Shown here piece by piece: positions 164 through 50,165 of a stretch of DNA of 64,000 bases. A program made the translations under genes and the position numbers. How positions within the stretch are numbered: position 1 is the first letter of the stretch; every line of letters starts with the position of its first letter. Source of the DNA: a bacterium HR16 (GTDB lineage: Bacteria > Armatimonadota > HRBIN16); the NCBI GenBank assembly GCA_002898895.1, contig BEHS01000001.1, positions 7,106 to 71,105 of the forward strand. Direction: 5' to 3'. The notes under the pieces are model-generated. The model saw only the letters and a program-made list of their open reading frames with translations, was not told where the DNA came from and ran no database searches.

Positions 164-565
164 TCACCCCTGTGCCGAGCGACCGTAAGCCGGACGCTCT
201 GGCTCCACGATGTAGCGCGATAGCGTGATGGTCAGCTGGTACGTCACCACCTGCAGGAACAGGATGATGCCGTAGCAGACCTGCGATACCAGACGGCTCC
301 ACTGGCGGCGCAGCCGCTGGGCAAAAGGCAACCGTTGCTCGGCGATAATCTCGGCGAGCATCGGCTGAAACTCTCGCCACAGGTCAATCCGGGGCTCCGG
401 CGCTTCCAGCTGCCGGCAGAACTCCACAAACCGGCGCAGTTCCTGATATTCCCGAGAGCACGCTTCGCAAGCGTACAGGTGCTGCAGCACCTGTTCCCGC
501 TCTGTCTGGCTCAGCTGCTCGTCAATCAGCGCGCTCAGTCGTTCCTGTACCTCTTCGCAACGCAT
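164..565 (-). CDS. zinc-finger (ZAS/zf-HC2-like) anti-sigma factor
   Basis: Immediately follows the ECF sigma gene with a 2-nt gap. HxxxCxxC motif (HLYACEACSREY). C-terminal hydrophobic segment. Confidence 0.6.
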   Translation of the reverse strand: MRCEEVQERLSALIDEQLSQTEREQVLQHLYACEACSREYQELRRFVEFCRQLEAPEPRIDLWREFQPMLAEIIAEQRLPFAQRLRRQWSRLVSQVCYGIILFLQVVTYQLTITLSRYIVEPERPAYGRSAQG

Positions 566-567
566 GG

Positions 568-1215
568 TTACTCACCTACCCCCTGCCAGTAAGTTCGATA
601 ATAAGGTTCAAAAAGACGTTTAAAAGCCAATCGGGCACGATGCAAGCGCGATTTCACGTTCGCAATCGTCAAGCCGGTGATGTGACTGATTTCCTCATAG
701 GAGAGCTGCTCGAAGTCACGTAGCACCAGCATTGTCCGGTAGTCTTCGGGCAAGCGCGCCAGCACCTCACGCACTTTCCGTTGCAGTTCCTCGCGCTCCA
801 CGTGTGCCTGTAAATCCTCGTCCGACACCGGCTCATAACCACCGTTTTCGCGCTCCGCCATCTCTTCCAGCGAATCGGTCCTCTCTCGCTTCATGTCGCG
901 CAGGCGATTACAGCACAGGTTGTGCGCGATACGCAGTAGCCACGCGCGGAAGCTGCTGTCTCCGCGGAAGGAGCGGATGTTTTTGAACGCCCGGATAAAC
1001 ACCTCCTGCGTCAGGTCGTGCGCTTCCTCACCGGGCACCATCCGGTACACCACACTGTATACCAGCCTCATGTACTTCTGGTACAGCTTCTCAAAGGCGG
1101 ACGAGTCGCCGTCGCTGCATCGGCGTACCAGCAAGATGTCTTCGTCCAGTGGCGCGATCATGTTGAACGTAATCTCTTGCGTTGCCTCCGTGGGCGTGCC
1201 AGCTGTCAGTACCAT
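568..1215 (-). CDS. ECF-type RNA polymerase sigma-70 factor
   Basis: Region-2 and region-4 signatures (FEKLYQKYMRLVYSVVYRMV; SYEEISHITGLTIANVKSRLHRAR). Paired with the downstream anti-sigma. Confidence 0.8.
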   Translation of the reverse strand: MVLTAGTPTEATQEITFNMIAPLDEDILLVRRCSDGDSSAFEKLYQKYMRLVYSVVYRMVPGEEAHDLTQEVFIRAFKNIRSFRGDSSFRAWLLRIAHNLCCNRLRDMKRERTDSLEEMAERENGGYEPVSDEDLQAHVEREELQRKVREVLARLPEDYRTMLVLRDFEQLSYEEISHITGLTIANVKSRLHRARLAFKRLFEPYYRTYWQGVGE

Positions 1216-2420: not shown

Positions 2421-4445
2421 GTGATGCCAAGAGCTATTACCATCGACGACCTGTTTCGGCTCCGGCTGGTCAGCGATGCGCAGATTGCGCCCGATGGTGA
2501 ACGGGTGGTCTGTGTGGTGAAGAACGCTGATCGCGAGAAGAACAAATACTTCAGCCATCTGTACCTGTGTGACCTGCGCACGCGCGAGGTGCGCCAGTTC
2601 ACCAGCGGCGAGGTCGCCGATAGCCAGCCACGCTGGTCCCCGGACGGCAAGACCATCGCCTTTGTCAGCAATCGCCAGAAGCCCAAATCACAGATATTCC
2701 TGATACCGGTGGACGGCGGCGAGGCGCGTGCACTCACCTCGCTGGAGGAAGGTAGCATCGGCGAAATCGCCTGGTCGCCGGACGGCACGAAGATAACGTT
2801 TACCTTCCGCCTCACGCCCGAGCAGTGGCGCGAACAGGTGGTGAAAGAGCGGAAGGAGAAAGGCCTGTCTACCCCGCCCCGTATCATCACCCGTCCGTTT
2901 TACCGGCTGGACGGCGCTGGCTACTTCGACGGCGAGTACTATCAGGTGTGGGTAGCGGACGCCCGTACCGGCGAAGCAAAGCAACTTACGAACGAAGCGA
3001 CATCCTGCGGTAGCCTGAGCTGGTCCCCGGACAGCAGCAAGGTTGCCTTTGTGTGCAACCGCAGTGAAGACCCCGACCTGAACCCCAATCTCGAGGATAT
3101 CTGGCTGGTCCCTGCCGGAGGCGGCGACCTGCAACGGGTAGAGACTCCGAAGGGACCCAAGGGCGGACTCGCTTTCTCGCCCGATGGCACGTGCATCGCC
3201 TACATCGGACATACGAAAGTAGAGGACATCTGGGGTGTTACGAATGACCACCTGTGGATAGCCGACCTGAGCAACGGCACAGCGCGAGACATCATGGAGG
3301 GATTTGACCGTTCGCTGGGCAACCTGACGCTCAGCGATATGCGCGACGTGGGCGGAGGTAGCCGTCCAACGTGGACGCCTGACGGCAAACGGCTGCTGTT
3401 CCTCGCCAGCGACAGGGGCAGCACGAAGCTCTACAGCATCTCCGCCGACGGAGGCGAACCCGTTGCTCTGCGTGGAGAGCGTGCAGACATCACAACGTTC
3501 TCTCTCAGCGCGGACGGCAAGTGCCTCGCATGGTGCGAAGGCACTGCTACGCAACCGCATGAGGTATTCACCGGCACGCTGGAAGACGGGGCGATACAAA
3601 ACGCCAGCGCCGTTACCTGCTTCAATGCCGAGTGGTTGGCGGAAGTGCAGGTACAGGCTCCCGAAGAGTTTACCTGTACCTCGCCCGAGGGCAACGAGGT
3701 GCATGGATGGATTCTGCATCCCCCCGACTTTGACCCGGCGAAGAAATATCCCCTCATCCTGGAGATACATGGTGGACCGCACGCGCAGTACGGCTGGGTA
3801 TTTTTCCACGAGTTCCAGCTGCTGGCGGCGCAGGGCTACGTGGTACTGTACACCAACCCGCGCGGCAGCAAGGGATATGGCGAGGCGCACACGGCGGCGA
3901 TTAAAGGCACATGGGGCGGACCCGACTACACCGACCTGATGGCAGCGGTAGATGCGCTGCTGGCACGCGGGTATATTGACGAGACGCGCATGGGCGTGAT
4001 GGGCGGTTCCTATGGCGGCTACATGACCAACTGGGTGGTGTCGCATACCGACCGCTTCCGCGCCGCCATCACCGACCGCAGCGTGGTTAACCTGCACAGC
4101 ATGGCGGGAACCTGCGACTTCCCCCTGCTACCCGGCGGCGACTACTTCCGGGGCAACGCCTGGGCAGAACCGCAAGACCTGTGGGAGCACTCGCCGCTGA
4201 AGTACGCGGATAATATCCACACCCCGTTGCTTATCATCCATAGCGAGGGCGACCTGCGCTGCCCTATCGAGCAAGCAGAGCAGCTGTTCGCCGCGTTGAA
4301 GGTGCAAAAGAAGGAAGCGGTGCTGGTGCGCTATCCGCTGGAGAGCAGCCATGGGCTATCCCGTTCCGGTCCGCCCGACCTGCGCGTGCACCGACTGCAA
4401 CAGATTGTGGAGTGGTGGAAGAGGTATCTGGCGCAGGATGGGTAG
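2421..4445 (+). CDS. S9 family serine peptidase (prolyl oligopeptidase/acylaminoacyl-peptidase-like) with N-terminal beta-propeller
   Basis: TolB-like WSPDG repeats in the N-terminal half. C-terminal catalytic GGSYGGYMT nucleophile elbow plus conserved D/H region. Confidence 0.85.
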   Translation: MMPRAITIDDLFRLRLVSDAQIAPDGERVVCVVKNADREKNKYFSHLYLCDLRTREVRQFTSGEVADSQPRWSPDGKTIAFVSNRQKPKSQIFLIPVDGGEARALTSLEEGSIGEIAWSPDGTKITFTFRLTPEQWREQVVKERKEKGLSTPPRIITRPFYRLDGAGYFDGEYYQVWVADARTGEAKQLTNEATSCGSLSWSPDSSKVAFVCNRSEDPDLNPNLEDIWLVPAGGGDLQRVETPKGPKGGLAFSPDGTCIAYIGHTKVEDIWGVTNDHLWIADLSNGTARDIMEGFDRSLGNLTLSDMRDVGGGSRPTWTPDGKRLLFLASDRGSTKLYSISADGGEPVALRGERADITTFSLSADGKCLAWCEGTATQPHEVFTGTLEDGAIQNASAVTCFNAEWLAEVQVQAPEEFTCTSPEGNEVHGWILHPPDFDPAKKYPLILEIHGGPHAQYGWVFFHEFQLLAAQGYVVLYTNPRGSKGYGEAHTAAIKGTWGGPDYTDLMAAVDALLARGYIDETRMGVMGGSYGGYMTNWVVSHTDRFRAAITDRSVVNLHSMAGTCDFPLLPGGDYFRGNAWAEPQDLWEHSPLKYADNIHTPLLIIHSEGDLRCPIEQAEQLFAALKVQKKEAVLVRYPLESSHGLSRSGPPDLRVHRLQQIVEWWKRYLAQDG

Positions 4446-4488
4446 TCTATCCGACGAATCAAAAACTGATGAAAAGGAGGTGACTTTC

Positions 4489-4869
4489 ATGCGCATCCAG
4501 CAAACTGTGGCGTGTCTGCTGGCGGTGCTTCTCTTGCTGAACATCGCGGCGCAGGCGCAAAAGAGTGCCAAACCCAAGGCGGACAAGAACGTTCCCAAGT
4601 ACGTCTGCCTGATGTGTAAGGTGGGGGCAGATAAACAGGGGAAATGCCCCATCTGCAACCTGCCGATGGCAAAGGCAGGGGTATACGTGTGCACCGAGTG
4701 CGGTGCCATGGCGGATAAAAAGGGCGACTGCCCACACTGCAAAAAGCCGATGGTCAAGCTGTCCAGCCTGGCGAAGAAGTGCAAAGTGTGTGGCTATTAC
4801 AGCGACAAGAACAAGAAAGAGTGTCCGGTGTGCGAGTACCGTAAGAAGATGAAATCGAAGAAGCCTTAG
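4489..4869 (+). CDS. secreted small protein with three Cys4 zinc-ribbon-like repeats (CxxC-x9-CPxC-x-PM)
   Basis: RBS AAAGGAGG 8 nt upstream of the ATG. Signal peptide ending AQAQ. Triplicated C-x2-C ... C-P-x-C unit. Confidence 0.55.
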   Translation: MRIQQTVACLLAVLLLLNIAAQAQKSAKPKADKNVPKYVCLMCKVGADKQGKCPICNLPMAKAGVYVCTECGAMADKKGDCPHCKKPMVKLSSLAKKCKVCGYYSDKNKKECPVCEYRKKMKSKKP

Positions 4870-4902
4870 CCCGTGACGTGCCGATCCTGAGGTGTCTCAT
4901 GT

Positions 4903-5036
4903 GAAGGGCGAGCCTCCCGGTGAGCCAGAACGCCCCACCTGACCTCCCTGCACGCGGGGAGGAGTATGGATATTGTCTCCCTGCAAGCAGGGGGACGAGA
5001 GGGGTGGCTAACGGCTCGGCAGGAGTCTCGCCCTCC
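4903..5036. repeat. MITE-like composite hairpin element (family-2 terminal inverted repeats GGAGGGCGAGGCTCC..CCGAGCC)
   Basis: GAAGGGCGAGCCTCCCGGTGAGCC at the left end and its inverted complement CGGCTCGGCAGGAGTCTCGCCCTCC at the right end. Related copies at 31974-32110 and 39647-39773. Confidence 0.6.
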
Positions 5037-5045
5037 GAATGTTTG

Positions 5046-5071
5046 TCCTGGAGGATCGTGCTCCGTCGCGA
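5046..5071. repeat. family-3 short hairpin repeat (GGAGGATCGTGCTCCGTCGCGACC)
   Basis: Near-identical copies at 39780-39803, 61875-61897 and 61915-61937, and inverted at 23657-23681. Confidence 0.5.
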
Positions 5072-5082
5072 CCAAAAACAGA

Positions 5083-5292
5083 CTACTCTTGCTTTTTCTC
5101 CCCCGGTGCCTGCACGATAACCGGCCCCATGCCCTGATACTGCTTATGGGTGCCGTCGCAGAAGGGGAACTTGCTGGATTTGAAACATCGACACAGCGCT
5201 ACCCGTTCACCGGGCTCCAGCTCTACGACCGTACGTGGTCGTCCTTCAATCTCCTCTGTAGAGTGCTTCGCCATAGCTGTACTCCTCACCAT
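5083..5292 (-). CDS. CDGSH iron-sulfur domain protein (mitoNEET-like zinc finger)
   Basis: Canonical CRCFKSSKFPFCDGTH motif. Confidence 0.8.
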   Translation of the reverse strand: MVRSTAMAKHSTEEIEGRPRTVVELEPGERVALCRCFKSSKFPFCDGTHKQYQGMGPVIVQAPGEKKQE

Positions 5293-5452
5293 ACGAATTG
5301 ACAGTTTTTCTCTACGCTCTCCACGCTTCTATCTCCTGCTATCGGTGTTCGCCAGCGGTTGCGCAAAGGGTTGCCGATATGATATACTTATGTTGGTTGA
5401 GGGTATGATGAGCAGGTAGGGCGGCATAAGGGGGTAGCAATAATCTCGGAAG

Positions 5453-5483
5453 AGAGTGGGCAGGCTCGCCCACTCTTTTTCTT
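5453..5483 (+). terminator. intrinsic-terminator-like hairpin in the nusA leader
   Basis: 9-bp perfect stem AGAGTGGGC/GCCCACTCT, 6-nt loop, followed by TTTTTCTT. Sits 40 nt upstream of the nusA start. Confidence 0.45.
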
Positions 5484-5522
5484 ACCCTGTGAAGAGGTAA
5501 CTAGCTAGGATAGAGGGCAGCC

Positions 5523-6602
5523 ATGAACAGTGAATTCATCGAGATACTGCGTGCGCTGGAACGCGAGAGGGACATCCCGCTGGCGGTGCTCTGGGAGGCG
5601 CTGGAAACCGCTTTGACCAACGCCTACAAGAAGCACTGTGGCGCTGTCGGCGATGTGCGTCTTCGCCTCGATTCCAGTAAGGCGGGGGTTCGGTTGTTCT
5701 GTGAGCGTACCGTGGTGGAAGAGGTGGAGAACCCGCATACCCAGATTAGCCTGGAAGAGGCGCGGAAGTTTAAACCGGAAGCGGAGATTGGGGACACCGT
5801 GTCTGTACCGGTGGACCTGGATGACTTTGGTCGCATCGCTGCGCAAACCGCCAAGCAGGTAATCGTCCAGCGCATTCGTGAAGCGGAGCGGGAGCAGATA
5901 TATCAGGAGTTTCAAGAGCGAGTAGGCGAGATACTCTCCGGCTTCGTGCAGCGCAGGGAAGGTCCGAACGTGATTATCGACCTCGACAGGGTAGAAGCCA
6001 TCCTGCCGCCTGAGGAGCAAGTTCCCAATGAACCGTATCGCCCGCACGACCGCCTGCGCGTGTATCTGTTGCGGGTGGAGCGCACCACGAAGTCGCCACG
6101 CATTATCGTGTCGCGCAGTCACCCCAGCCTCATCCGTCGTCTGTTCGAGCTGGAGGTGCCCGAGGTGCGTGAGGGAAGCGTAGTGATTAAGGCGGTGGCA
6201 CGAGAGCCGGGAGCGCGCTCCAAAATCGCCGTGTGGGCGAAGGAGTCGAACATCGACCCGGTGGGTAGCTGTGTAGGGCTTCGGGGGACCCGGGTGCAGG
6301 CGGTGGTAAACGAGCTGTACGATGAAAAAATAGACATCATCCGCTGGTATCCCGACCCGGCGCAGTTTATCGCGGAGGCGCTGAGCCCGGCGAAGGTTTC
6401 GAGAGTGTATCTGAACGAGAAAGAGAAGAGCGCGCTGGTCATCGTGCCCGACGACCAGCTCTCGCTGGCGATTGGCAAAGCGGGGCAGAATGTGCGGCTG
6501 GCGGCACGCTTAACCGGCTGGAAGATAGATATTCGAAGTGAATCGCAGATCGCCCAGGACGCGCTGAAGACGGACAAAGAGGAACAGGAAAGCGTATCCT
6601 GA
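5523..6602 (+). CDS. nusA: transcription termination/antitermination factor NusA
   Basis: Full-length NusA N-terminal, S1 and KH domains (e.g. GDTVSVPVDLDDFGRIAAQTAKQVIVQRIREAERE). Conserved operon context. Confidence 0.95.
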   Translation: MNSEFIEILRALERERDIPLAVLWEALETALTNAYKKHCGAVGDVRLRLDSSKAGVRLFCERTVVEEVENPHTQISLEEARKFKPEAEIGDTVSVPVDLDDFGRIAAQTAKQVIVQRIREAEREQIYQEFQERVGEILSGFVQRREGPNVIIDLDRVEAILPPEEQVPNEPYRPHDRLRVYLLRVERTTKSPRIIVSRSHPSLIRRLFELEVPEVREGSVVIKAVAREPGARSKIAVWAKESNIDPVGSCVGLRGTRVQAVVNELYDEKIDIIRWYPDPAQFIAEALSPAKVSRVYLNEKEKSALVIVPDDQLSLAIGKAGQNVRLAARLTGWKIDIRSESQIAQDALKTDKEEQESVS

Positions 6603-9541: not shown

Positions 9542-10533
9542 TTCGCCGCCATCTACAACAGGTTGCTCAGGTGTTGCGGGAGGCAAAGAGCGTGGTTCTT
9601 GCCTGCCATCTCAACCCCGACGGCGATACGCTGGGATGCGCGCTGGCTCTTCAGGCGACGCTGGAGGGGTTGGGCAAGCGAGTAATCACCCTGAGCAGTG
9701 ACGGCGTGCCGGAGATATATCGCTTCTTGCCTGGCGCGGAAAAGATACTCACCTCCACCGAGCAACGCGGCTTCGATGTGGCGGTGGTGTGTGATACCGG
9801 TATGCCCGAGCGCATCGGGAAGGCGAAAGATGCGGTGTTCTCGGCGCGAATCGTCGTGGATATCGACCACCATGTCACCGAAGGCGCGTTCGGCGACATC
9901 CGTATCCAGCAGCCCAAAGCTGCCGCCACTGCCGAAATCGTCTACCGCCTGCTGAAAGTGATGGATGTACCGATTACGCCCGCCATCGCCACCTGTCTGC
10001 TCACCGGCATCATCACCGATACCGGTCTCTACCGTTACATGAACGTCTCGCCCACCACCTTCCGCTTAAGCGCAACCCTGATGGAGGCGGGGGCATCGCC
10101 TGCGCAGATTGCCGAAGAGGTTTTTGAACGACGCTCCTTCCCCAGCGTGAAACTGCTGGGGCGCGCCCTCGAACACATCCGGCAGGAAGAGGATGGACGG
10201 CTGGTGTGGTCCTACCTGAGCCACGAGGATTTCGCCGAGCTGGGCGCCACAGACGAAGACACTGAAGGCATCATCACCCAGCTGCGAGCAGTGCGTGATA
10301 GCGTGGTGCTGGCGCTGTTGCGGGAAGTGAAGCCCGGGCGTGTGCGCGTGAGCGTGCGCAGCCGCGACGAGCGTATCGACATGGCAAAGCTGGCAGAGAA
10401 GTTCGGAGGGGGCGGGCATCGGCTGGCGGCAGGGTTCTGGGTGGAAGGTAACATCGCCGAGGTGAAACAGAAAGTGATTGAGACACTGCGAGAATGGATG
10501 CACTGCTCAACCTCTACAAGCCAGCGGGCATGA
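9538..10533 (+). CDS. nrnA: DHH-family phosphoesterase (NrnA-like oligoribonuclease/pAp phosphatase)
   Basis: DHH motifs (HLNPDGDTLGCALAL, VDIDHH) and DHHA1 C-terminal GGGH. Confidence 0.8.
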   Translation: MIRRHLQQVAQVLREAKSVVLACHLNPDGDTLGCALALQATLEGLGKRVITLSSDGVPEIYRFLPGAEKILTSTEQRGFDVAVVCDTGMPERIGKAKDAVFSARIVVDIDHHVTEGAFGDIRIQQPKAAATAEIVYRLLKVMDVPITPAIATCLLTGIITDTGLYRYMNVSPTTFRLSATLMEAGASPAQIAEEVFERRSFPSVKLLGRALEHIRQEEDGRLVWSYLSHEDFAELGATDEDTEGIITQLRAVRDSVVLALLREVKPGRVRVSVRSRDERIDMAKLAEKFGGGGHRLAAGFWVEGNIAEVKQKVIETLREWMHCSTSTSQRA

Positions 10534-11432
10534 CCTCGCGCGAGGCAGTAGACGCCGTACGCCGAATACTGGGTGTACGACGGGCTGGACACACCGGCAC
10601 GCTGGACCCCGGTGCGGAAGGGGTGTTGCTCATCTGTCTGGGCAAAGCCACCCGCCTGAACGAGTTTCTGCAATGGCTCCCCAAAACCTATCGCGCGACG
10701 ATGGTGCTGGGTGTGCAGACCGATACGCAGGACATGGAAGGGAAGGTGATTGCCAGCACCGATGCCGGCGGTATTACGCGCGAGATGCTGGAAGCTGTGC
10801 TGCCCCGCTTCACGGGAGAGATCGAGCAGATTCCGCCCATGCACTCGGCGGTACACCACGAGGGAAGGCGGCTGTACGAGCTTGCTCGAGAAGGGAAGGT
10901 GGTGTCCAGAGAGGCTCGTAAGGTGCAGGTATATCGTCTGGAGCTATTGCGCTTCTCGCCCGGCGAACACCCTGAAGCGGAAATCGAGGTGGAGTGTTCC
11001 ACCGGAACCTATATCCGCACCCTGTGCGCGGACATCGGTGACGCGCTGGGCGCAGGAGGAGCCATGAAGTCGTTGGTGCGCACCGCAATCGGTGCCTTCC
11101 GCGTTGAAAACGCGGTGACCCTTCAGCAGCTGGAAGCGGGCGACGCTGCAGACCATCTCATCCCGATGGCGAAGGCGGTGGAGGATATTCTTCCTGTCTG
11201 GACACCTCATCCTCGCGTGCTGCGCCTGTTTCGGCTGGGTAGATTCGTGAAGCCGAAACCTTTTCCACCTGTGCCTCTGCCGGAAGATAAACCTCCTTAC
11301 ATCGCCGTACTGGATGCGGCAGGCGATTTGTTCGCCATCGCAACCGTACGCCGTGATGAGGTATGGCCCTACAAGGTCTTCGGTGAGCATGTGCTGTATC
11401 ACCCACGTAGCGTGGAGGAGGATTTGGGGTGA
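10494..11432 (+). CDS. truB: tRNA pseudouridine(55) synthase TruB
   Basis: LYKPAGMTSREAVD...GHTGTLDP catalytic Asp motif and PUA-like C-terminus. True start may be a later in-frame codon. Confidence 0.9.
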   Translation: MDALLNLYKPAGMTSREAVDAVRRILGVRRAGHTGTLDPGAEGVLLICLGKATRLNEFLQWLPKTYRATMVLGVQTDTQDMEGKVIASTDAGGITREMLEAVLPRFTGEIEQIPPMHSAVHHEGRRLYELAREGKVVSREARKVQVYRLELLRFSPGEHPEAEIEVECSTGTYIRTLCADIGDALGAGGAMKSLVRTAIGAFRVENAVTLQQLEAGDAADHLIPMAKAVEDILPVWTPHPRVLRLFRLGRFVKPKPFPPVPLPEDKPPYIAVLDAAGDLFAIATVRRDEVWPYKVFGEHVLYHPRSVEEDLG

Positions 11433-12349
11433 GAGGCTCCGACCCGCGCCCGTTGAGCCTGCGTGCCAGCGTCGTGACCATCGGCTCTTTCGACGGGGTG
11501 CACCGGGGACATCAGGCAATTATTCGTGTGGCTATCCAGCGCGCGCAGGAACTGCATATACCTGCTGTTGCGGTCACCTTTGACCGCCATCCACAGGAAG
11601 CCATTCAACCCGATAACGCGCCACCCTATTTAACCACCCTGACCAGTCGTCTGCGCCTGTTACTGAACACCGGGCTTCACGATGTGCTGGTTCTACGCTT
11701 CGACCGCGAGTTTTCCTCACTGCCTCCCGAAGCGTTTTTGCACTCGGTTCTGCAGAAGCACCTGAACGCGCGTCGTATCGTGGTGGGCAGGGATTTCCGC
11801 TTCGGGCATCGGCGGATGGGCAGTGTAGACTATTTACGGGAAGTGCAGGCGCGTTTCGGCTTCGAGGTGGAGGACGTACCGGACGTGCTGTACCGCGGCG
11901 AGCGCATCAGCAGTAGCCGAATCCGCCAGGCGTTGCTGGACGGCGAAGTGCAGGAGGCATCGGCTATGCTGGGCAGGGCGTATGTACTGGAGGGGATAGT
12001 GGTGCGCGGGAAACAGCTGGGCAGGAAACTGGGCTATCCGACGGTAAACCTGAGCCTGCGCGCGCCCCAGCTGGTACCGAAAGATGGAATCTACGCAGGA
12101 AAACTACTACACCCGCGTACGGGCAACAGCTACACGGCGGCGATTAGCATCGGCGTGCGCCCTACCGTGGACGGCACGAAGCGCACCATCGAAGCGTACC
12201 TGCTTGGTTTTTCAGGCAGTCTGTATGGTGAGGAGGTGCACCTTGCCTTCTTTCACCGCCTGCGTGACGAACGCAAGTTCGAGTCTTTACAGGCGCTGAG
12301 GGCGCAGATGGATAAAGACGTGCAACAGGTGGTGGAGCTGATGGGGTAA
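11429..12349 (+). CDS. ribF: bifunctional riboflavin kinase / FAD synthetase
   Basis: GSFDGVHRGHQ nucleotidyltransferase motif. Riboflavin-kinase C-terminal domain. Confidence 0.9.
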   Translation: MRGSDPRPLSLRASVVTIGSFDGVHRGHQAIIRVAIQRAQELHIPAVAVTFDRHPQEAIQPDNAPPYLTTLTSRLRLLLNTGLHDVLVLRFDREFSSLPPEAFLHSVLQKHLNARRIVVGRDFRFGHRRMGSVDYLREVQARFGFEVEDVPDVLYRGERISSSRIRQALLDGEVQEASAMLGRAYVLEGIVVRGKQLGRKLGYPTVNLSLRAPQLVPKDGIYAGKLLHPRTGNSYTAAISIGVRPTVDGTKRTIEAYLLGFSGSLYGEEVHLAFFHRLRDERKFESLQALRAQMDKDVQQVVELMG

Positions 12350-12363
12350 GAGTTCACCACATG

Positions 12364-12388
12364 GAGGGCGAGGCTCCGTCCGAGCCGA
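12364..12388. repeat. family-2 hairpin repeat (GGAGGGCGAGGCTCCGTCCGAGCCG), solo copy
   Basis: Same 25-mer at 46616-46640 and inverted at 62025-62052. GGCTC/GAGCC stem. Confidence 0.55.
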
Positions 12389-12409
12389 CATACGGGCAAG
12401 AATAAAGGG

Positions 12410-14935
12410 GTGATAAGCATGAGAAAGCAACCTGTCTTCGTCGTTTTACTATACATACTTTTCGTTTCTCTGTCCTGGGGGCAAGCACAAAAGCCCCCTG
12501 CTGCGCCTCCGCAGCTCTCCGAGAAGGACAAAAAGATTATCGCCCTGTTTGAAAAGGCGGTCTCGCTGCAGCGAGCAGGCAAGGCAAAGGAAGCAATTGC
12601 GGCGTATCAGGAGCTGCTCAATCTGCAACCCAACACGCCGATGGCGCGTTTCAATCTGGGCGAGATTTACATGGCGCAGGGGGACTTCTCAGCCGCCGAG
12701 GCGCAGTTCCGGCAAGTGGTAAAAGCCCTGCCTAAACTGCCGGAGGGCTATTTCCGGCTTGCAACCGCCCTTGCCCAGCAAAAGAAATGGCGTGAGGCGA
12801 CACAGATGGCACAGAAGGGCGTGCAGCTTGCCCCCAAAAGCGCGGAAGGGCATTTCGTGCTGGGAGTAATCTACCTCTCTCAGAAGCGTTTTGCGGAGGC
12901 GGAGAAAAGCCTCCTGCGCAGCAGCCAGCTGAACCCCAAAGCGACCAACACGCAGTTTAACCTTGCTTACGTGTACCTGCAGATGCGCCAGCCGCGCAAG
13001 GCTATACCCATTCTGAAAAAGATTACCGAGCAGGAGCCGAAAAACCCCGCGGCGTGGGCGGGGCTGGGAATGGCATGCGACATTGCGGGTGATTTACTCC
13101 AAGCACGCGATGCCTACCGCCGCGCTCTGTCTTTGCAACCCCAGAACGAGGACCTGACCCTGCGCCTGGCGATGGTACTGGGGCGCATGAATCAGCATAA
13201 GGAGTCACTGCAGCTGCTGGAGAGGTTGGTGAAGGCACACCCCAACGATGCCGGACTGTGGTTTGCCATCGGGCAGACGCATTTCAACATGCGGCAGTAT
13301 CGCGAGGCGGAAATCGCCTTTCGCAAGGTATTGCAATCGCAGCCGAAAAACGTGGCCGCGCAGGCAAACCTTGCGTTGTGTCTGCTGAATCAGAACCAGC
13401 TGGACAACGCCAAGCGTGAGTACGAAAAGCTGCGCCAGATGCGCCCGCAGGACGTGAACGCGCTGATGGGGCTGGCATACATTGCCGAAATGCAGGGACG
13501 CTGGGATGATGCCCTGAAGGAGTATGAGCAGTGGCAAAAGCAGGAGCCAAACAACCCCGAGCCGTTGCTGCGCAGTGCTCGTGTATGGCTACAGCGGGAT
13601 AAGGTCCCGCAGGCGATCAGCGTGCTGGAGAAGGCAGAGCGTCAGTTCCCCAGTAACGCGGGCGTGCTGATGCAGGTGGCAGATGTGCTGGCGCAGGCGA
13701 ATCAGTATGAAGAGGCACTCAAACGCTACCAGCGCATTCTGAAAATCGACTCCAAACATCTGGGCGCGCTGAACGGCGCAGGGCTGATGTGTGCTCGACT
13801 GAAGCGCAGCAAGGACGCGCTCGGCTACTACCGGCAGGTGCTGGATATTCAGCCCGACAACTCACAGGTGCTGTTCTTCATTGCCGACCTGTACGAGCAG
13901 GATAAAGACTACGCCGGGCTGGCAACCGAGATGCGTCGGGTGGTGCAGAGGAACCCCAAAAACGTGGTGGCGTGGTGGCGGCTGTCCATCGCTCTGGAGC
14001 GGCAAAACAAGATGGATGAAGCGCTTGCAGCGCTTCGGGAGATCGAGAAGCTGACACCCAACGATATGTTCTATCTGGTCAACATCCCCCGCCTGCTGGA
14101 CAATCAGGGTAAAACCGAGGAGGCGGCGAAAGAGTACCGCAAGCTGATTGCCCGCCAGCGCAAGGAGCCGCGCCTTTACGGGATGCTTGCCGCCCTGTAC
14201 AAAAAACATAACCGCCCCGACGAGGCGATAGCGGTGTACCAAGAGGGAATCAAGGAGCTGCCCAAGGACACCTACCTGCGCACTCTGCTGGCACGCACCT
14301 ACGAAGAACAGCAAAAGTGGGAAGAGGCAAAGCAGGTTTACGGACAGATTCTGCAGGTCGCGCCCACCGAACCCGGGGCATACAGCGGTTTGCAGAGGTG
14401 TCTTGTGCAACTGAAGCAAGAAGAGCAGTTCTCCGCTCTGGTTATGCCCATTATCGAACGCGATGCTTCGAATGAGGCGGCGGTGCGCGCTCTGGCGAAC
14501 TTTTACCGCGACCGGGGCAAACCCGCCGATGGAATACCACTTCTGGCTTCGCTATCGCAGAAGCACCCGAAACAGAAGGGCATATGGTTGACGCTGGCTC
14601 AGCTACAGCAGGAGGCAGGCAAAGAGGAGGACGCCCTCAAGAGCTACGAGCAGGTACTGCGGATAGACGGCACCGACCTGCAGGCGCTGCGCAGTATCGC
14701 GCAGATACATGAGAAGCGCAACGAGATCCTCAAAGCCGCAGGCATCTACGAGCGCATTCTGGCGGGCTATCCGCAGGACATCCCTACCCGCCTGCGTCTG
14801 GCGGGGATGTACGAGCAGGCAGGGCAAAAGCAGAAAGCTATCGAGCAGTATCGCGAGGTGCTCAAGCGCGATGCGAACAACACTATCGCGAAGGAGAGCC
14901 TGCAGAGATTAGGAGCCTCTTCTGCAGGAGGATAG
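12410..14935 (+). CDS. secreted tetratricopeptide (TPR) repeat protein
   Basis: Signal peptide followed by about 20 consecutive 34-residue TPR units. RBS AAAGGGGTG. Confidence 0.8.
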   Translation: MISMRKQPVFVVLLYILFVSLSWGQAQKPPAAPPQLSEKDKKIIALFEKAVSLQRAGKAKEAIAAYQELLNLQPNTPMARFNLGEIYMAQGDFSAAEAQFRQVVKALPKLPEGYFRLATALAQQKKWREATQMAQKGVQLAPKSAEGHFVLGVIYLSQKRFAEAEKSLLRSSQLNPKATNTQFNLAYVYLQMRQPRKAIPILKKITEQEPKNPAAWAGLGMACDIAGDLLQARDAYRRALSLQPQNEDLTLRLAMVLGRMNQHKESLQLLERLVKAHPNDAGLWFAIGQTHFNMRQYREAEIAFRKVLQSQPKNVAAQANLALCLLNQNQLDNAKREYEKLRQMRPQDVNALMGLAYIAEMQGRWDDALKEYEQWQKQEPNNPEPLLRSARVWLQRDKVPQAISVLEKAERQFPSNAGVLMQVADVLAQANQYEEALKRYQRILKIDSKHLGALNGAGLMCARLKRSKDALGYYRQVLDIQPDNSQVLFFIADLYEQDKDYAGLATEMRRVVQRNPKNVVAWWRLSIALERQNKMDEALAALREIEKLTPNDMFYLVNIPRLLDNQGKTEEAAKEYRKLIARQRKEPRLYGMLAALYKKHNRPDEAIAVYQEGIKELPKDTYLRTLLARTYEEQQKWEEAKQVYGQILQVAPTEPGAYSGLQRCLVQLKQEEQFSALVMPIIERDASNEAAVRALANFYRDRGKPADGIPLLASLSQKHPKQKGIWLTLAQLQQEAGKEEDALKSYEQVLRIDGTDLQALRSIAQIHEKRNEILKAAGIYERILAGYPQDIPTRLRLAGMYEQAGQKQKAIEQYREVLKRDANNTIAKESLQRLGASSAGG

Positions 14936-49883: not shown

Positions 49884-50165
49884 TCATACCCCCGTCCGCA
49901 GCAGAAGATACAGCGACACCATCAACCACACTCCACCCACAAAACCCATCACCAGCCCCGCAATGCCCAGTACGTCCAGTCGCGTTGCTGTGCCCGTCAT
50001 CCCCAGCGCATAGCCGAGCAATACCGTCACACCCGACGCTACTACCTGCCTCTGGTATCGCTTGCGCTGGGGATGTTCGATCACATAACCGCATTGCGGA
50101 CACGGTTGCGTGGGGTCGCTGACCTCTGCCGCACATTTCGGGCAACGCACACTCTGATCCATCAC
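49884..50165 (-). CDS. zinc-ribbon membrane protein
   Basis: CPKC...CPQCG ribbon followed by two TM helices. Confidence 0.45.
   Translation of the reverse strand: MMDQSVRCPKCAAEVSDPTQPCPQCGYVIEHPQRKRYQRQVVASGVTVLLGYALGMTGTATRLDVLGIAGLVMGFVGGVWLMVSLYLLLRTGV

Follow-up and report, generated by a model that had tools for sequence, protein, structure and literature searches.

A lysine-rich protein of bacterium HR16, predicted to be exported, with three four-cysteine knuckles that probably derive in part from HMBD, a domain that binds heavy metals

HMBD, a domain that binds heavy metals, occurs widely among efflux proteins for copper and silver. The only experimental HMBD structure that we found in the literature is that of LpCopA, in which the core of the metal-binding domain (MBD; residues 35-68; PDB 8OVL) forms a three-stranded sheet with a rubredoxin-knuckle CPxCG turn, and in which nuclear magnetic resonance (NMR) established that M44, C59 and M61 bind Ag+ and, by inference, Cu+ (PMC11970713). 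Similar folds are found in zinc-binding domains with ligands that align to C42, H45, C56 and C59, and in the N-MBD of the periplasmic protein SilB; a copper-sensing, autoregulatory role was proposed for the LpCopA domain (PMC11970713). The motif TCPMHPEIR was also noted in histidine-rich P1B-1 ATPases (PMC6387184). A further paper that cites PF19335 describes an MXCXXC ferredoxin-like chaperone of a different fold and was not used here (PMC13254101). Our literature search found no study or experimental characterisation of free-standing secreted HMBD proteins. Here we analyse a gene for a 126-aa protein at positions 4489-4869 of a 64,000-nt stretch (the window) of contig BEHS01000001.1 of bacterium HR16. 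We propose that its product is a basic protein, exported by the Sec pathway, which carries three HMBD-derived tetrathiolate sites and serves as a metal buffer, store or chaperone in the envelope, and we assign to this reading as a whole a probability of about one half.

The gene is almost certainly real, and it is under strong purifying selection. Comparison with four orthologs from four other assemblies gave dN/dS values of 0.07-0.18, with saturated synonymous sites. An earlier note, made from the letters of the window, had described an open reading frame (ORF) with a good ribosome-binding site, and GGAGG indeed stands 8 nt upstream of the ATG. The frame can be extended back to 4351, where it overlaps the 3' end of an S9 peptidase gene, but in the alignment no homolog makes use of this extension. 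The product is 100% identical to the hypothetical protein HRbin16_00013 of bacterium HR16. Its narrow clade comprises 16 homolog clusters with 57-100% identity, all from metagenomes or metagenome-assembled genomes (MAGs), and one close homolog carries the label Armatimonadota. The predicted mature protein has 103 aa, 24% Lys, a net charge of about +18 and a pI of 9.5. The features of the gene are as follows.

4489..4869, + strand: coding sequence of 126 aa (ATG 4489, stop 4867-4869), from sequence reading and homolog search
4476..4480, + strand: Shine-Dalgarno sequence GGAGG, 8 nt before the ATG, from sequence reading
4489..4557, + strand: predicted Sec/signal peptidase I signal peptide, aa 1-23, MRIQQTVACLLAVLLLLNIAAQA, cut after A23 (AQA before and QK after the cut), from n/h/c features and conservation
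4558..4599, + strand: N-terminal Lys/Pro-rich linker of the mature protein, aa 24-37, from the alignment and low predicted local distance difference test (pLDDT) values
4600..4680, + strand: unit 1, aa 38-64, YVCLMCKVGADKQGKCPICNLPMAKAG, HMBD-like knuckle with Cys replacing the canonical His, from Pfam, hhalign and the BLASTP register with a canonical unit of the relative P0050
4684..4764, + strand: unit 2, aa 66-92, YVCTECGAMADKKGDCPHCKKPMVKLS, HMBD-like knuckle and duplicate of unit 1, from hhalign and the DNA repeat
4774..4842, + strand: unit 3, aa 96-118, KKCKVCGYYSDKNKKECPVCEYR, more divergent Cys4 ribbon with a 10-residue spacer, from its best Pfam match and its conservation in sister clades
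4843..4866, + strand: basic C-terminal tail KKMKSKKP, from the sequence; in the AlphaFold2 (AF2) model the end of helix 113-123

All 12 Cys of the mature chain are arranged in six CxxC pairs, which form three units (aa 40-56, 68-84 and 98-115). When the mature sequence was shuffled 200,000 times, only 41 of the products had as many as six CxxC pairs, and every full-length homolog keeps 12 of 12 Cys. Each unit has the two CxxC knuckles and four Cys of a zinc ribbon or rubredoxin-knuckle site, both in sequence and in the AF2 model. This model, run on the 16-sequence alignment with a mean pLDDT of 74 and a predicted TM-score (pTM) of 0.51, places helix 2-23 apart, leaves residues 21-31 disordered and predicts three compact units (pLDDT 81-87) with a short hairpin at each knuckle. 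Structure searches gave matches too weak to inform on the fold. The three tandem Cys4 units of the earlier note are therefore borne out as CxxC-x9/10-CPxC, while their supposed near-identity is not. Units 1 and 2 share 14 of 27 residues (52%), and their DNA forms a direct repeat (4626-4674 and 4710-4758; 73% identity over 49 nt, 84-nt period), whereas unit 3 matches unit 1 at 7 and unit 2 at 10 of 27 positions (26-37%). The tail motif, given earlier as x-PM, reads CPxC-x2-PM and occurs in units 1 and 2 only; unit 3, with its 10-residue spacer, has no PM. P59 is private to the HR16 protein, the other 15 homologs having Q. Sister clades (P0018, P0021-25, P0034, P0038, P0116) keep unit 3 in third place, together with a basic tail. 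A DsbA-like CPHC redox motif in unit 2 was considered and rejected, since its two middle residues vary freely in the clade.

Searches of Pfam, NCBIfam and PDB sequences with the whole protein and with single units returned nothing at the cut-off, and the relationship to HMBD emerges from the relatives. An exhaustive phmmer search of 1.84 billion cluster representatives retrieved 104 proteins at E<=1e-3, among which 15 reached E<=1e-10. Nearly all have 90-150 aa, and in them a leader precedes between one and four tandem Y-x-C-x-x-[C/H/D]-x9/10-C-P-x-C units with hydrophobic and Lys residues after the last Cys. Pfam HMBD (PF19335), a model independent of our query, matches 64 of the 104 at E<=1e-3, with a best value of 8.7e-37. 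BLASTP aligns the HR16 protein in register, over leader and units 1-2, with P0050 (E=4e-11), which consists of three canonical HMBDs and scores 117.8 bits in Pfam. The closest relative outside the clade, P0017 (46% identity), is above the HMBD cut-off with 30.4 bits, and so are the CxxC-type relatives P0034 (28.4 bits) and P0029 (37.2 bits). Moreover, canonical CPMHP units and CxxC or CxMD units are mixed in single chains (P0046, P0062, P0063, P0077). In hhalign comparisons with canonical units the clade units reached probabilities of 96.3% (unit 1), 95.8% (unit 2) and 23.5% (unit 3), and unit 2 against unit 1 gave 96.9%. In the clade members to which it was applied, a profile of canonical units scored unit 1 at 12-20 bits and unit 2 at 6-14 bits, a test that is partly circular because the proteins in the profile had been retrieved by the query. 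A broad family profile found PDB 8OVL with E=2e-5. Based on these comparisons, units 1 and 2 are probably diverged HMBDs with Cys in place of His, while we read unit 3 as a more generic Cys4 ribbon.

Several results weigh against this assignment. HMBD scores just 16.2 bits with the whole protein and 17.7 bits with unit 1, the cut-off being 23.6; Zn_ribbon_6 (PF07191) reaches 21.2 bits against a cut-off of 25, and the rubrerythrin rubredoxin-like domain RUBY_RBDX (PF21349) 23.2 bits with unit 3 and 18.4 bits with the whole protein against 26.5. The best Pfam match, always below the cut-off, is HMBD for unit 1, assorted ribbons for unit 2 and the rubrerythrin rubredoxin-like domain for unit 3. 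The first HMBD knuckle, C-x-M-H as in TCPMHPE, is C-x-x-C in all three units. The broad family profile also finds C2H2 finger arrays, by way of a GKCPxCGK motif, so that short Cys-rich motifs can evidently match by convergence, and the PDB search with the narrow clade profile misses 8OVL. Matches to Zn_ribbon_6 and DUF7129 are common among the relatives, two of which, P0043 (43.3 bits) and P0049 (35.6 bits), pass the Zn_ribbon_6 cut-off. The units might thus be generic zinc ribbons not descended from HMBD, in which CxxC and CPxC arose convergently in a Lys-rich background. This alternative concerns ancestry only and overlaps with other readings, and we regard it as unlikely. Generic cytoplasmic ribbons mostly score <=4 bits with the canonical-unit profile, although P0068 reaches 9.0, as against the values given above for units 1 and 2. 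The nearest relative and the chains of mixed unit type speak against convergence as well, and the whole architecture agrees: a leader, tandem units of 28-31 aa that start from Y-x-C, then D-K-x-G-K-C-P-x-C, then a hydrophobic residue and Lys. By Pfam's own standards of score and C-x-M-H knuckle the protein falls outside HMBD, but its homology to HMBD proteins is well supported. We take it to be an all-Cys, triplicated, free-standing and probably exported form of HMBD that current profile libraries miss.

The comparison with LpCopA suggests how the sites may have changed. Both proteins have a knuckle mini-domain of about 28 residues that starts with Y-x-C, and in both the second knuckle, D/S-K-P-G-x-C-P-x-C, is followed by hydrophobic and Lys residues. 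They differ in the first knuckle, C-x-x-C instead of C-P-M-H, in the spacer, from which units 1 and 2 lack one residue, and in their setting, since the LpCopA domain is single, cytoplasmic and regulatory within a P-type ATPase, while the HR16 protein is predicted to be exported, and is triplicated and free-standing. The first knuckles read CLMC, CTEC and CKVC in units 1, 2 and 3, and the second knuckles G-K-C-P-x-C, G-D-C-P-x-C and E-C-P-V-C. The four Cys of the query align with C42, H45, C56 and C59 of LpCopA. Of the trigonal site formed by M44, C59 and M61, the alignment leaves only the Cys equivalent to C59 conserved. The positions of M44 and M61 are occupied by M/A/L/I/V and Leu in unit 1 and by E/G and Lys in unit 2; the third-position Met of the first knuckle occurs in unit 1 only and is not conserved in the clade. 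The G-M that follows the second knuckle of HMBD is replaced by N-L, K-K and E-Y in units 1, 2 and 3, with a Met two residues downstream in units 1 and 2. Since the Met positions are not conserved, the canonical trigonal Met/Cys site for Cu(I)/Ag(I) is gone, and a tetrathiolate site would be its natural replacement.

The family as a whole suggests that the second ligand position has been kept for metal. Among 222 units it is Cys in 167, His in 23, Asp in 21 and another residue in 11, i.e. C, H or D in 211 of 222. Cys, His and Asp are all metal ligands, and their exchange argues that the position binds metal and against a purely disulfide role. We also examined the possibility of a basic protein that is exported and holds no metal, in which six CxxC disulfides give stability in the oxidising envelope of a thermophile and which acts by its basic surface, perhaps as a binder of envelope polymers or a modulator of a protease. 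Sec would deliver the chain unfolded into a compartment where thiols are presumably oxidised as a rule, in line with such a protein. On the other hand, across the family the second ligand gives way only to His or Asp, a change that keeps a metal site and would destroy a disulfide, and the domain to which the units are related binds metal by NMR (PMC11970713). We consider the disulfide alternative improbable, and return to it with the gene neighbourhood. Metal binding, which the earlier note had suggested, is the best reading of the protein, and we predict with reasonable confidence that it binds metal, most plausibly one ion per unit in tetrathiolate coordination. As to other variants in the family, unit 1 of P0017 and P0020 (loci L014 8001-8387 and L016 8001-8360) has C-T-T-D or C-T-K-D and their unit 2 a collapsed second knuckle, K-C-P-C-G or K-C-S-C-G, while unit 2 of P0022 has C-M-K-H.

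Unit 3 raises the question of whether iron could be bound. An exported rubredoxin-like protein with Fe(Cys)4 in one or more units would serve as an electron carrier in the envelope. The best Pfam match of unit 3, the rubrerythrin rubredoxin-like domain (23.2 bits, E=4.5e-5), is compatible with this, as is the best PDB sequence match of the whole protein, a rubredoxin (E=0.03). Relatives are also named 'rubrerythrin' in some sources, labels that we regard, like that of an RNA polymerase subunit, as mistaken. Yet all rubredoxin-type scores are below the cut-off, and HMBD is a closer match than rubredoxin for units 1 and 2. The two knuckles of rubredoxin are about 25-30 residues apart, for which the spacers of 9-10 residues are too short. 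In addition, the Tat signal that would be expected for the export of a pre-loaded redox cofactor is lacking, and no redox partner gene is located nearby. An iron protein is consequently very unlikely.

Export is the second pillar of our proposal. The N-terminus can be divided into MRIQQ, VACLLAVLLLL, N and IAAQA, followed by QK. R2 provides the positive n-region, VACLLAVLLLL is a hydrophobic core of 11 residues, N18 is polar, and IAAQA, with A21-Q-A23, forms the c-region. Over the 16 homologs the Ala at -1 (A23) is invariant and position -3 (aa 21) is A or V. These are the features of a leader for Sec and signal peptidase I according to a rule-based heuristic (n/h/c criteria, a core of 7-15 residues, small residues at -1 and -3), which is not a trained predictor. 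A lipoprotein was ruled out, as Cys9 varies in the clade and lacks a lipobox, and a Tat substrate was ruled out by the absence of a twin arginine. A hydrophobic leader precedes the first unit in 91 of the 104 relatives, and the remaining ones are for the most part fragments, mis-started ORFs or unrelated ribbons. Textbook leaders, for instance MKKLIVLTAFLG...FAQ, occur in relatives from other phyla, in some cases ahead of an acidic early mature region.

The main caveat on export is the early mature region, with a net charge of +3 to +4. By the positive-inside rule such a charge disfavours translocation, and the segment could instead be an uncleaved reverse signal-anchor (N-out/C-in) that holds cytoplasmic zinc ribbons at the membrane. 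Scoring of eight clade members gave a net charge of +2 to +4 behind the hydrophobic segment and of +1 to +2 in front of it, which favours C-in, and the uncharged stretch extends over 18-21 residues. The window even contains a cytoplasmic ribbon that is fused to membrane helices, in the protein encoded at 49884-50165. Nevertheless, a truly hydrophobic core of only 11 residues, then a conserved polar residue and then A/V-x-A, whose Ala at -1 is invariant, make up the pattern of a cleaved leader, and both the textbook leaders in other phyla and the prevalence of leaders among the relatives point in the same direction. The shortness of the core, together with the conservation of the polar residue and of A/V-x-A, leads us to judge cleavage and export likelier and to give the anchor little credence. 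In agreement with the earlier note, which had predicted a signal peptide, the protein most probably leaves the cytoplasm, with a putative cleavage after A23. Directly after this predicted site stands a short basic motif, Q-K-x-x-K-P-K (aa 24-30, 4558-4578), which is invariant or nearly so in the clade; the seven residues behind it, by contrast, are freely variable.

The 93-aa ORF at 49884-50165 (- strand) combines an N-terminal CPKC-x10-CPQC zinc ribbon with two predicted membrane helices. It is the sole other Cys4 ribbon found in the 64-kb window and is unrelated; the window holds no paralogs of the Cys-rich protein.

We propose the following scenario for the HR16 protein. The pre-protein would be exported unfolded by the Sec pathway and cut by signal peptidase I after A23. 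The mature chain of 103 aa would then be a string of three knuckles of about 27 residues with two CxxC turns each. In units 1 and 2, C-x-x-C would have taken the place of the canonical C-x-M-H in the first knuckle, and unit 3 would be a more generic Cys4 ribbon. Each unit may fold round a single thiophilic metal ion that is bound through four thiolates; by default this would be Zn(II), with Cu(I), Cd(II) and other soft metals as further possibilities. Since there is no Tat signal, the metal would be acquired after export, outside the cytoplasm. The result would be a three-site metal buffer, store or chaperone in the envelope or periplasm, with the basic surface and tail holding the protein on anionic envelope components. 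The choice of metal and of buffer or chaperone is speculative, and a specific role of either kind is put forward only tentatively.

Small secreted HMBD proteins are among the nearest counterparts to such a protein. On plasmids, canonical HMBDs occur in heavy-metal (Cu) P-type ATPases, in periplasmic adaptor subunits of RND systems and in 'heavy metal-binding domain-containing' proteins. WP_257791745.1 from a plasmid of Pontibacter actiniarum has 95 aa, with one HMBD between its leader and a Lys-rich tail; like the metagenomic P0050, P0046 and P0077 it shares with the HR16 protein a signal peptide, one to four tandem knuckles, a Lys-rich tail and the lack of any other domain. These proteins differ from it by their canonical CPMHP units and strong Pfam scores. 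The Pontibacter gene furthermore lies between a multicopper oxidase gene, DUF305 genes and a gene for a Cu P-type ATPase (CopA), whereas no metal genes are found near the genes of the HR16 clade. The N-MBD of SilB, compared here by description, likewise has a periplasmic metal site of the rubredoxin-knuckle type and illustrates that such domains work outside the cytoplasm, but it is part of a large RND adaptor and uses a trigonal sulfur site with Met, not four Cys, for Ag+/Cu+. Zn_ribbon_6 (E. coli YfgJ, PDB 2JNE) and PF21349 also build Cys4 sites from two CxxC knuckles and are weak sequence matches below the cut-off; YfgJ-type ribbons and the rubrerythrin domain are cytoplasmic and lack a leader, and the rubrerythrin centre binds Fe and has a longer spacer. 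CusF, CopC and ZraP/ZinT are small exported metal binders of the envelope and are analogous in function only, as their folds and ligand sets are unrelated, they have no sequence similarity to the HR16 protein, and they are usually encoded in metal-regulated operons, unlike the HR16 gene.

The earlier note held that zinc ribbons are usually cytoplasmic, and its reading would be refuted if no signal-peptide cleavage were predicted and the homologs were cytoplasmic proteins of the rubredoxin-like or ribosomal-ribbon type. The homologs are not of these types. HMBD-type knuckles are, however, routine behind signal peptides and in periplasmic RND adaptors, as for SilB (PMC11970713), so that an extracytoplasmic knuckle is normal for the HMBD family and the premise of the note is weakened.

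The gene neighbourhood contributes less to the argument. Immediately upstream lies the following gene.

2421..4445, + strand: peptidase of the S9 prolyl-oligopeptidase family, which has a PD40/Tricorn_N propeller and lacks a signal peptide, from Pfam

It ends 43 nt before the gene for the Cys-rich protein, no terminator-like site was found in the gap, and the two are probably operon partners. In every clade member examined the two genes are neighbours; the gap measures 43-46 nt, except in the most divergent member, where it is 574 nt. Downstream, the gene is convergent on a CDGSH gene in most clade members, with two genes inserted between them in one genome. Further out, an operon for an extracytoplasmic function (ECF) sigma factor, an anti-sigma factor, NfeD and a Met-rich protein lies to one side of this group, and the nusA-infB operon to the opposite side. 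The ECF sigma/Met-rich operon is divergent from our gene and is gone from the neighbourhood of the most divergent member. The earlier note had pointed to the proximity of the CDGSH and Met-rich genes. A functional link is not supported: the former is transcribed convergently, the latter belongs to a divergent operon that is lost near the most divergent clade member, and neither is found beside sister-clade relatives. Functional coupling to either was thus rejected, as they are different transcription units that are not conserved together beyond the clade.

Synteny of the homologs, which the same note had proposed as a check, gives no support to a role in metal handling. Metal-homeostasis genes are absent within +/-10 kb in every clade member examined, and the contexts of sister-clade relatives are unrelated to each other, both of which speak against our proposal. 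P0017 has a gene for a cupredoxin-domain protein as neighbour, P0023 a YtkA-domain gene two genes upstream, and P0024 genes for BON and DUF5666 proteins; at P0020 and the sister-clade metagenome loci nothing recognisable lies nearby. A scan of genome contigs with the sister-clade alignment added one short Chloroflexi MAG contig, and a scan of metagenome contigs 14 loci, for the most part of close relatives, including two sister-clade loci without informative neighbours. In tblastn searches against plasmids neither the 126-aa protein nor the CxxC-type relative P0029 found a match.

The lack of metal genes would suit a disulfide-stabilised protein that modulates a protease, and so would the peptidases: the PD40-propeller peptidase adjoins the clade gene, and a Tricorn-like protease adjoins P0043. 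Against this, the S9 peptidase has no signal peptide, which would place it in a different compartment from that of the exported Cys protein, and a peptidase neighbour occurs in only two of the seven lineages examined. P0043 is a distant, three-unit relative whose gene (L020 10001-10378) lies 143 nt upstream of the protease gene (10521-13715) on the same strand; the protease has 1064 aa with Tricorn_N, PD40, PDZ_Tricorn and Peptidase_S41 domains. Its position echoes that of the PD40/Tricorn_N S9 peptidase beside the HR16 gene. We take the recurrence of propeller-peptidase neighbours in two of seven lineages as a weak lead, not as a finding, and keep to the exported metal-binding protein as our preferred reading.

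If this reading is right, the clade illustrates that the HMBD fold tolerates the replacement of His by Cys, and elsewhere by Asp, at one ligand position, that its Met ligands can be lost, and that it can be joined in series to make an exported protein with three sites, whose gene lies among housekeeping genes. The metal and its stoichiometry, if measured, would tell whether the HMBD family spans the handling of zinc or other soft metals in the envelope besides copper sensing. A bolder idea, to which we attach a low probability, is that the all-Cys, leader-bearing tandem units are a distinct, unnamed branch of HMBD that has switched from a Met/Cys sensor of Cu(I)/Ag(I) to tetrathiolate sites. 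Its members could be constitutive metal stores of the envelope or redox-switched proteins for metal release, encoded outside metal-resistance islands and in some lineages maybe tied to PD40/Tricorn-type peptidases.

HMBDs also occur in much larger proteins. Plasmids of Thioclava and Nitratireductor (L035 5119-7569 and L036 4572-6407) encode 'heavy metal-binding domain-containing' proteins of about 610-820 aa with tandem HMBDs. Their genes lie between nuoA-like and nuoH/J/K/L/M-like genes, in a complex-I-related or Mrp-like cluster, and one of these clusters is near a CopD family gene.

Some further observations concern the neighbours in the window. The CDGSH gene (5083-5292, - strand) encodes a small iron-sulfur protein (Pfam E=9.5e-12) without a leader; gene callers give its orthologs 62-80 aa, and the start codon is uncertain. 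In the gap between the two convergent genes a long GC-rich hairpin, CCUCCCUGCACGCGGGGAGG...CUCCCUGCAAGCAGGGGG, extends over 4943-4995. It has no U-run, the fold z-score of a 135-nt stretch that includes it is only -1.35, and an Rfam scan of 4200-5600 gave only chance-level microRNA matches, which fall on the hairpin. It may be a bidirectional terminator. On the other side, the Met-rich gene (1273-2199, - strand) heads an operon with 568-1215 (- strand) and 164-565 (- strand), which comprises the ECF sigma factor and a membrane anti-sigma factor with an H-x3-C-x2-C zf-HC2 motif. NfeD follows this block in related contigs, and the block is kept in most clade genomes but not beside the most divergent ortholog. 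The Met-rich protein, of 308 aa, comprises a leader and a linker rich in Pro, with the Met-rich region at its C-terminus, and its only Pfam match is a weak one to DUF3106 (E=0.0034). The Met-rich region contains three M-x-x-F-M-x-M-[SD]-P-(E-E-R) repeats (...QLFMQMSPEERQ..., ...QMFMNMDPSLR..., ...RMFMNMSPEERR...).

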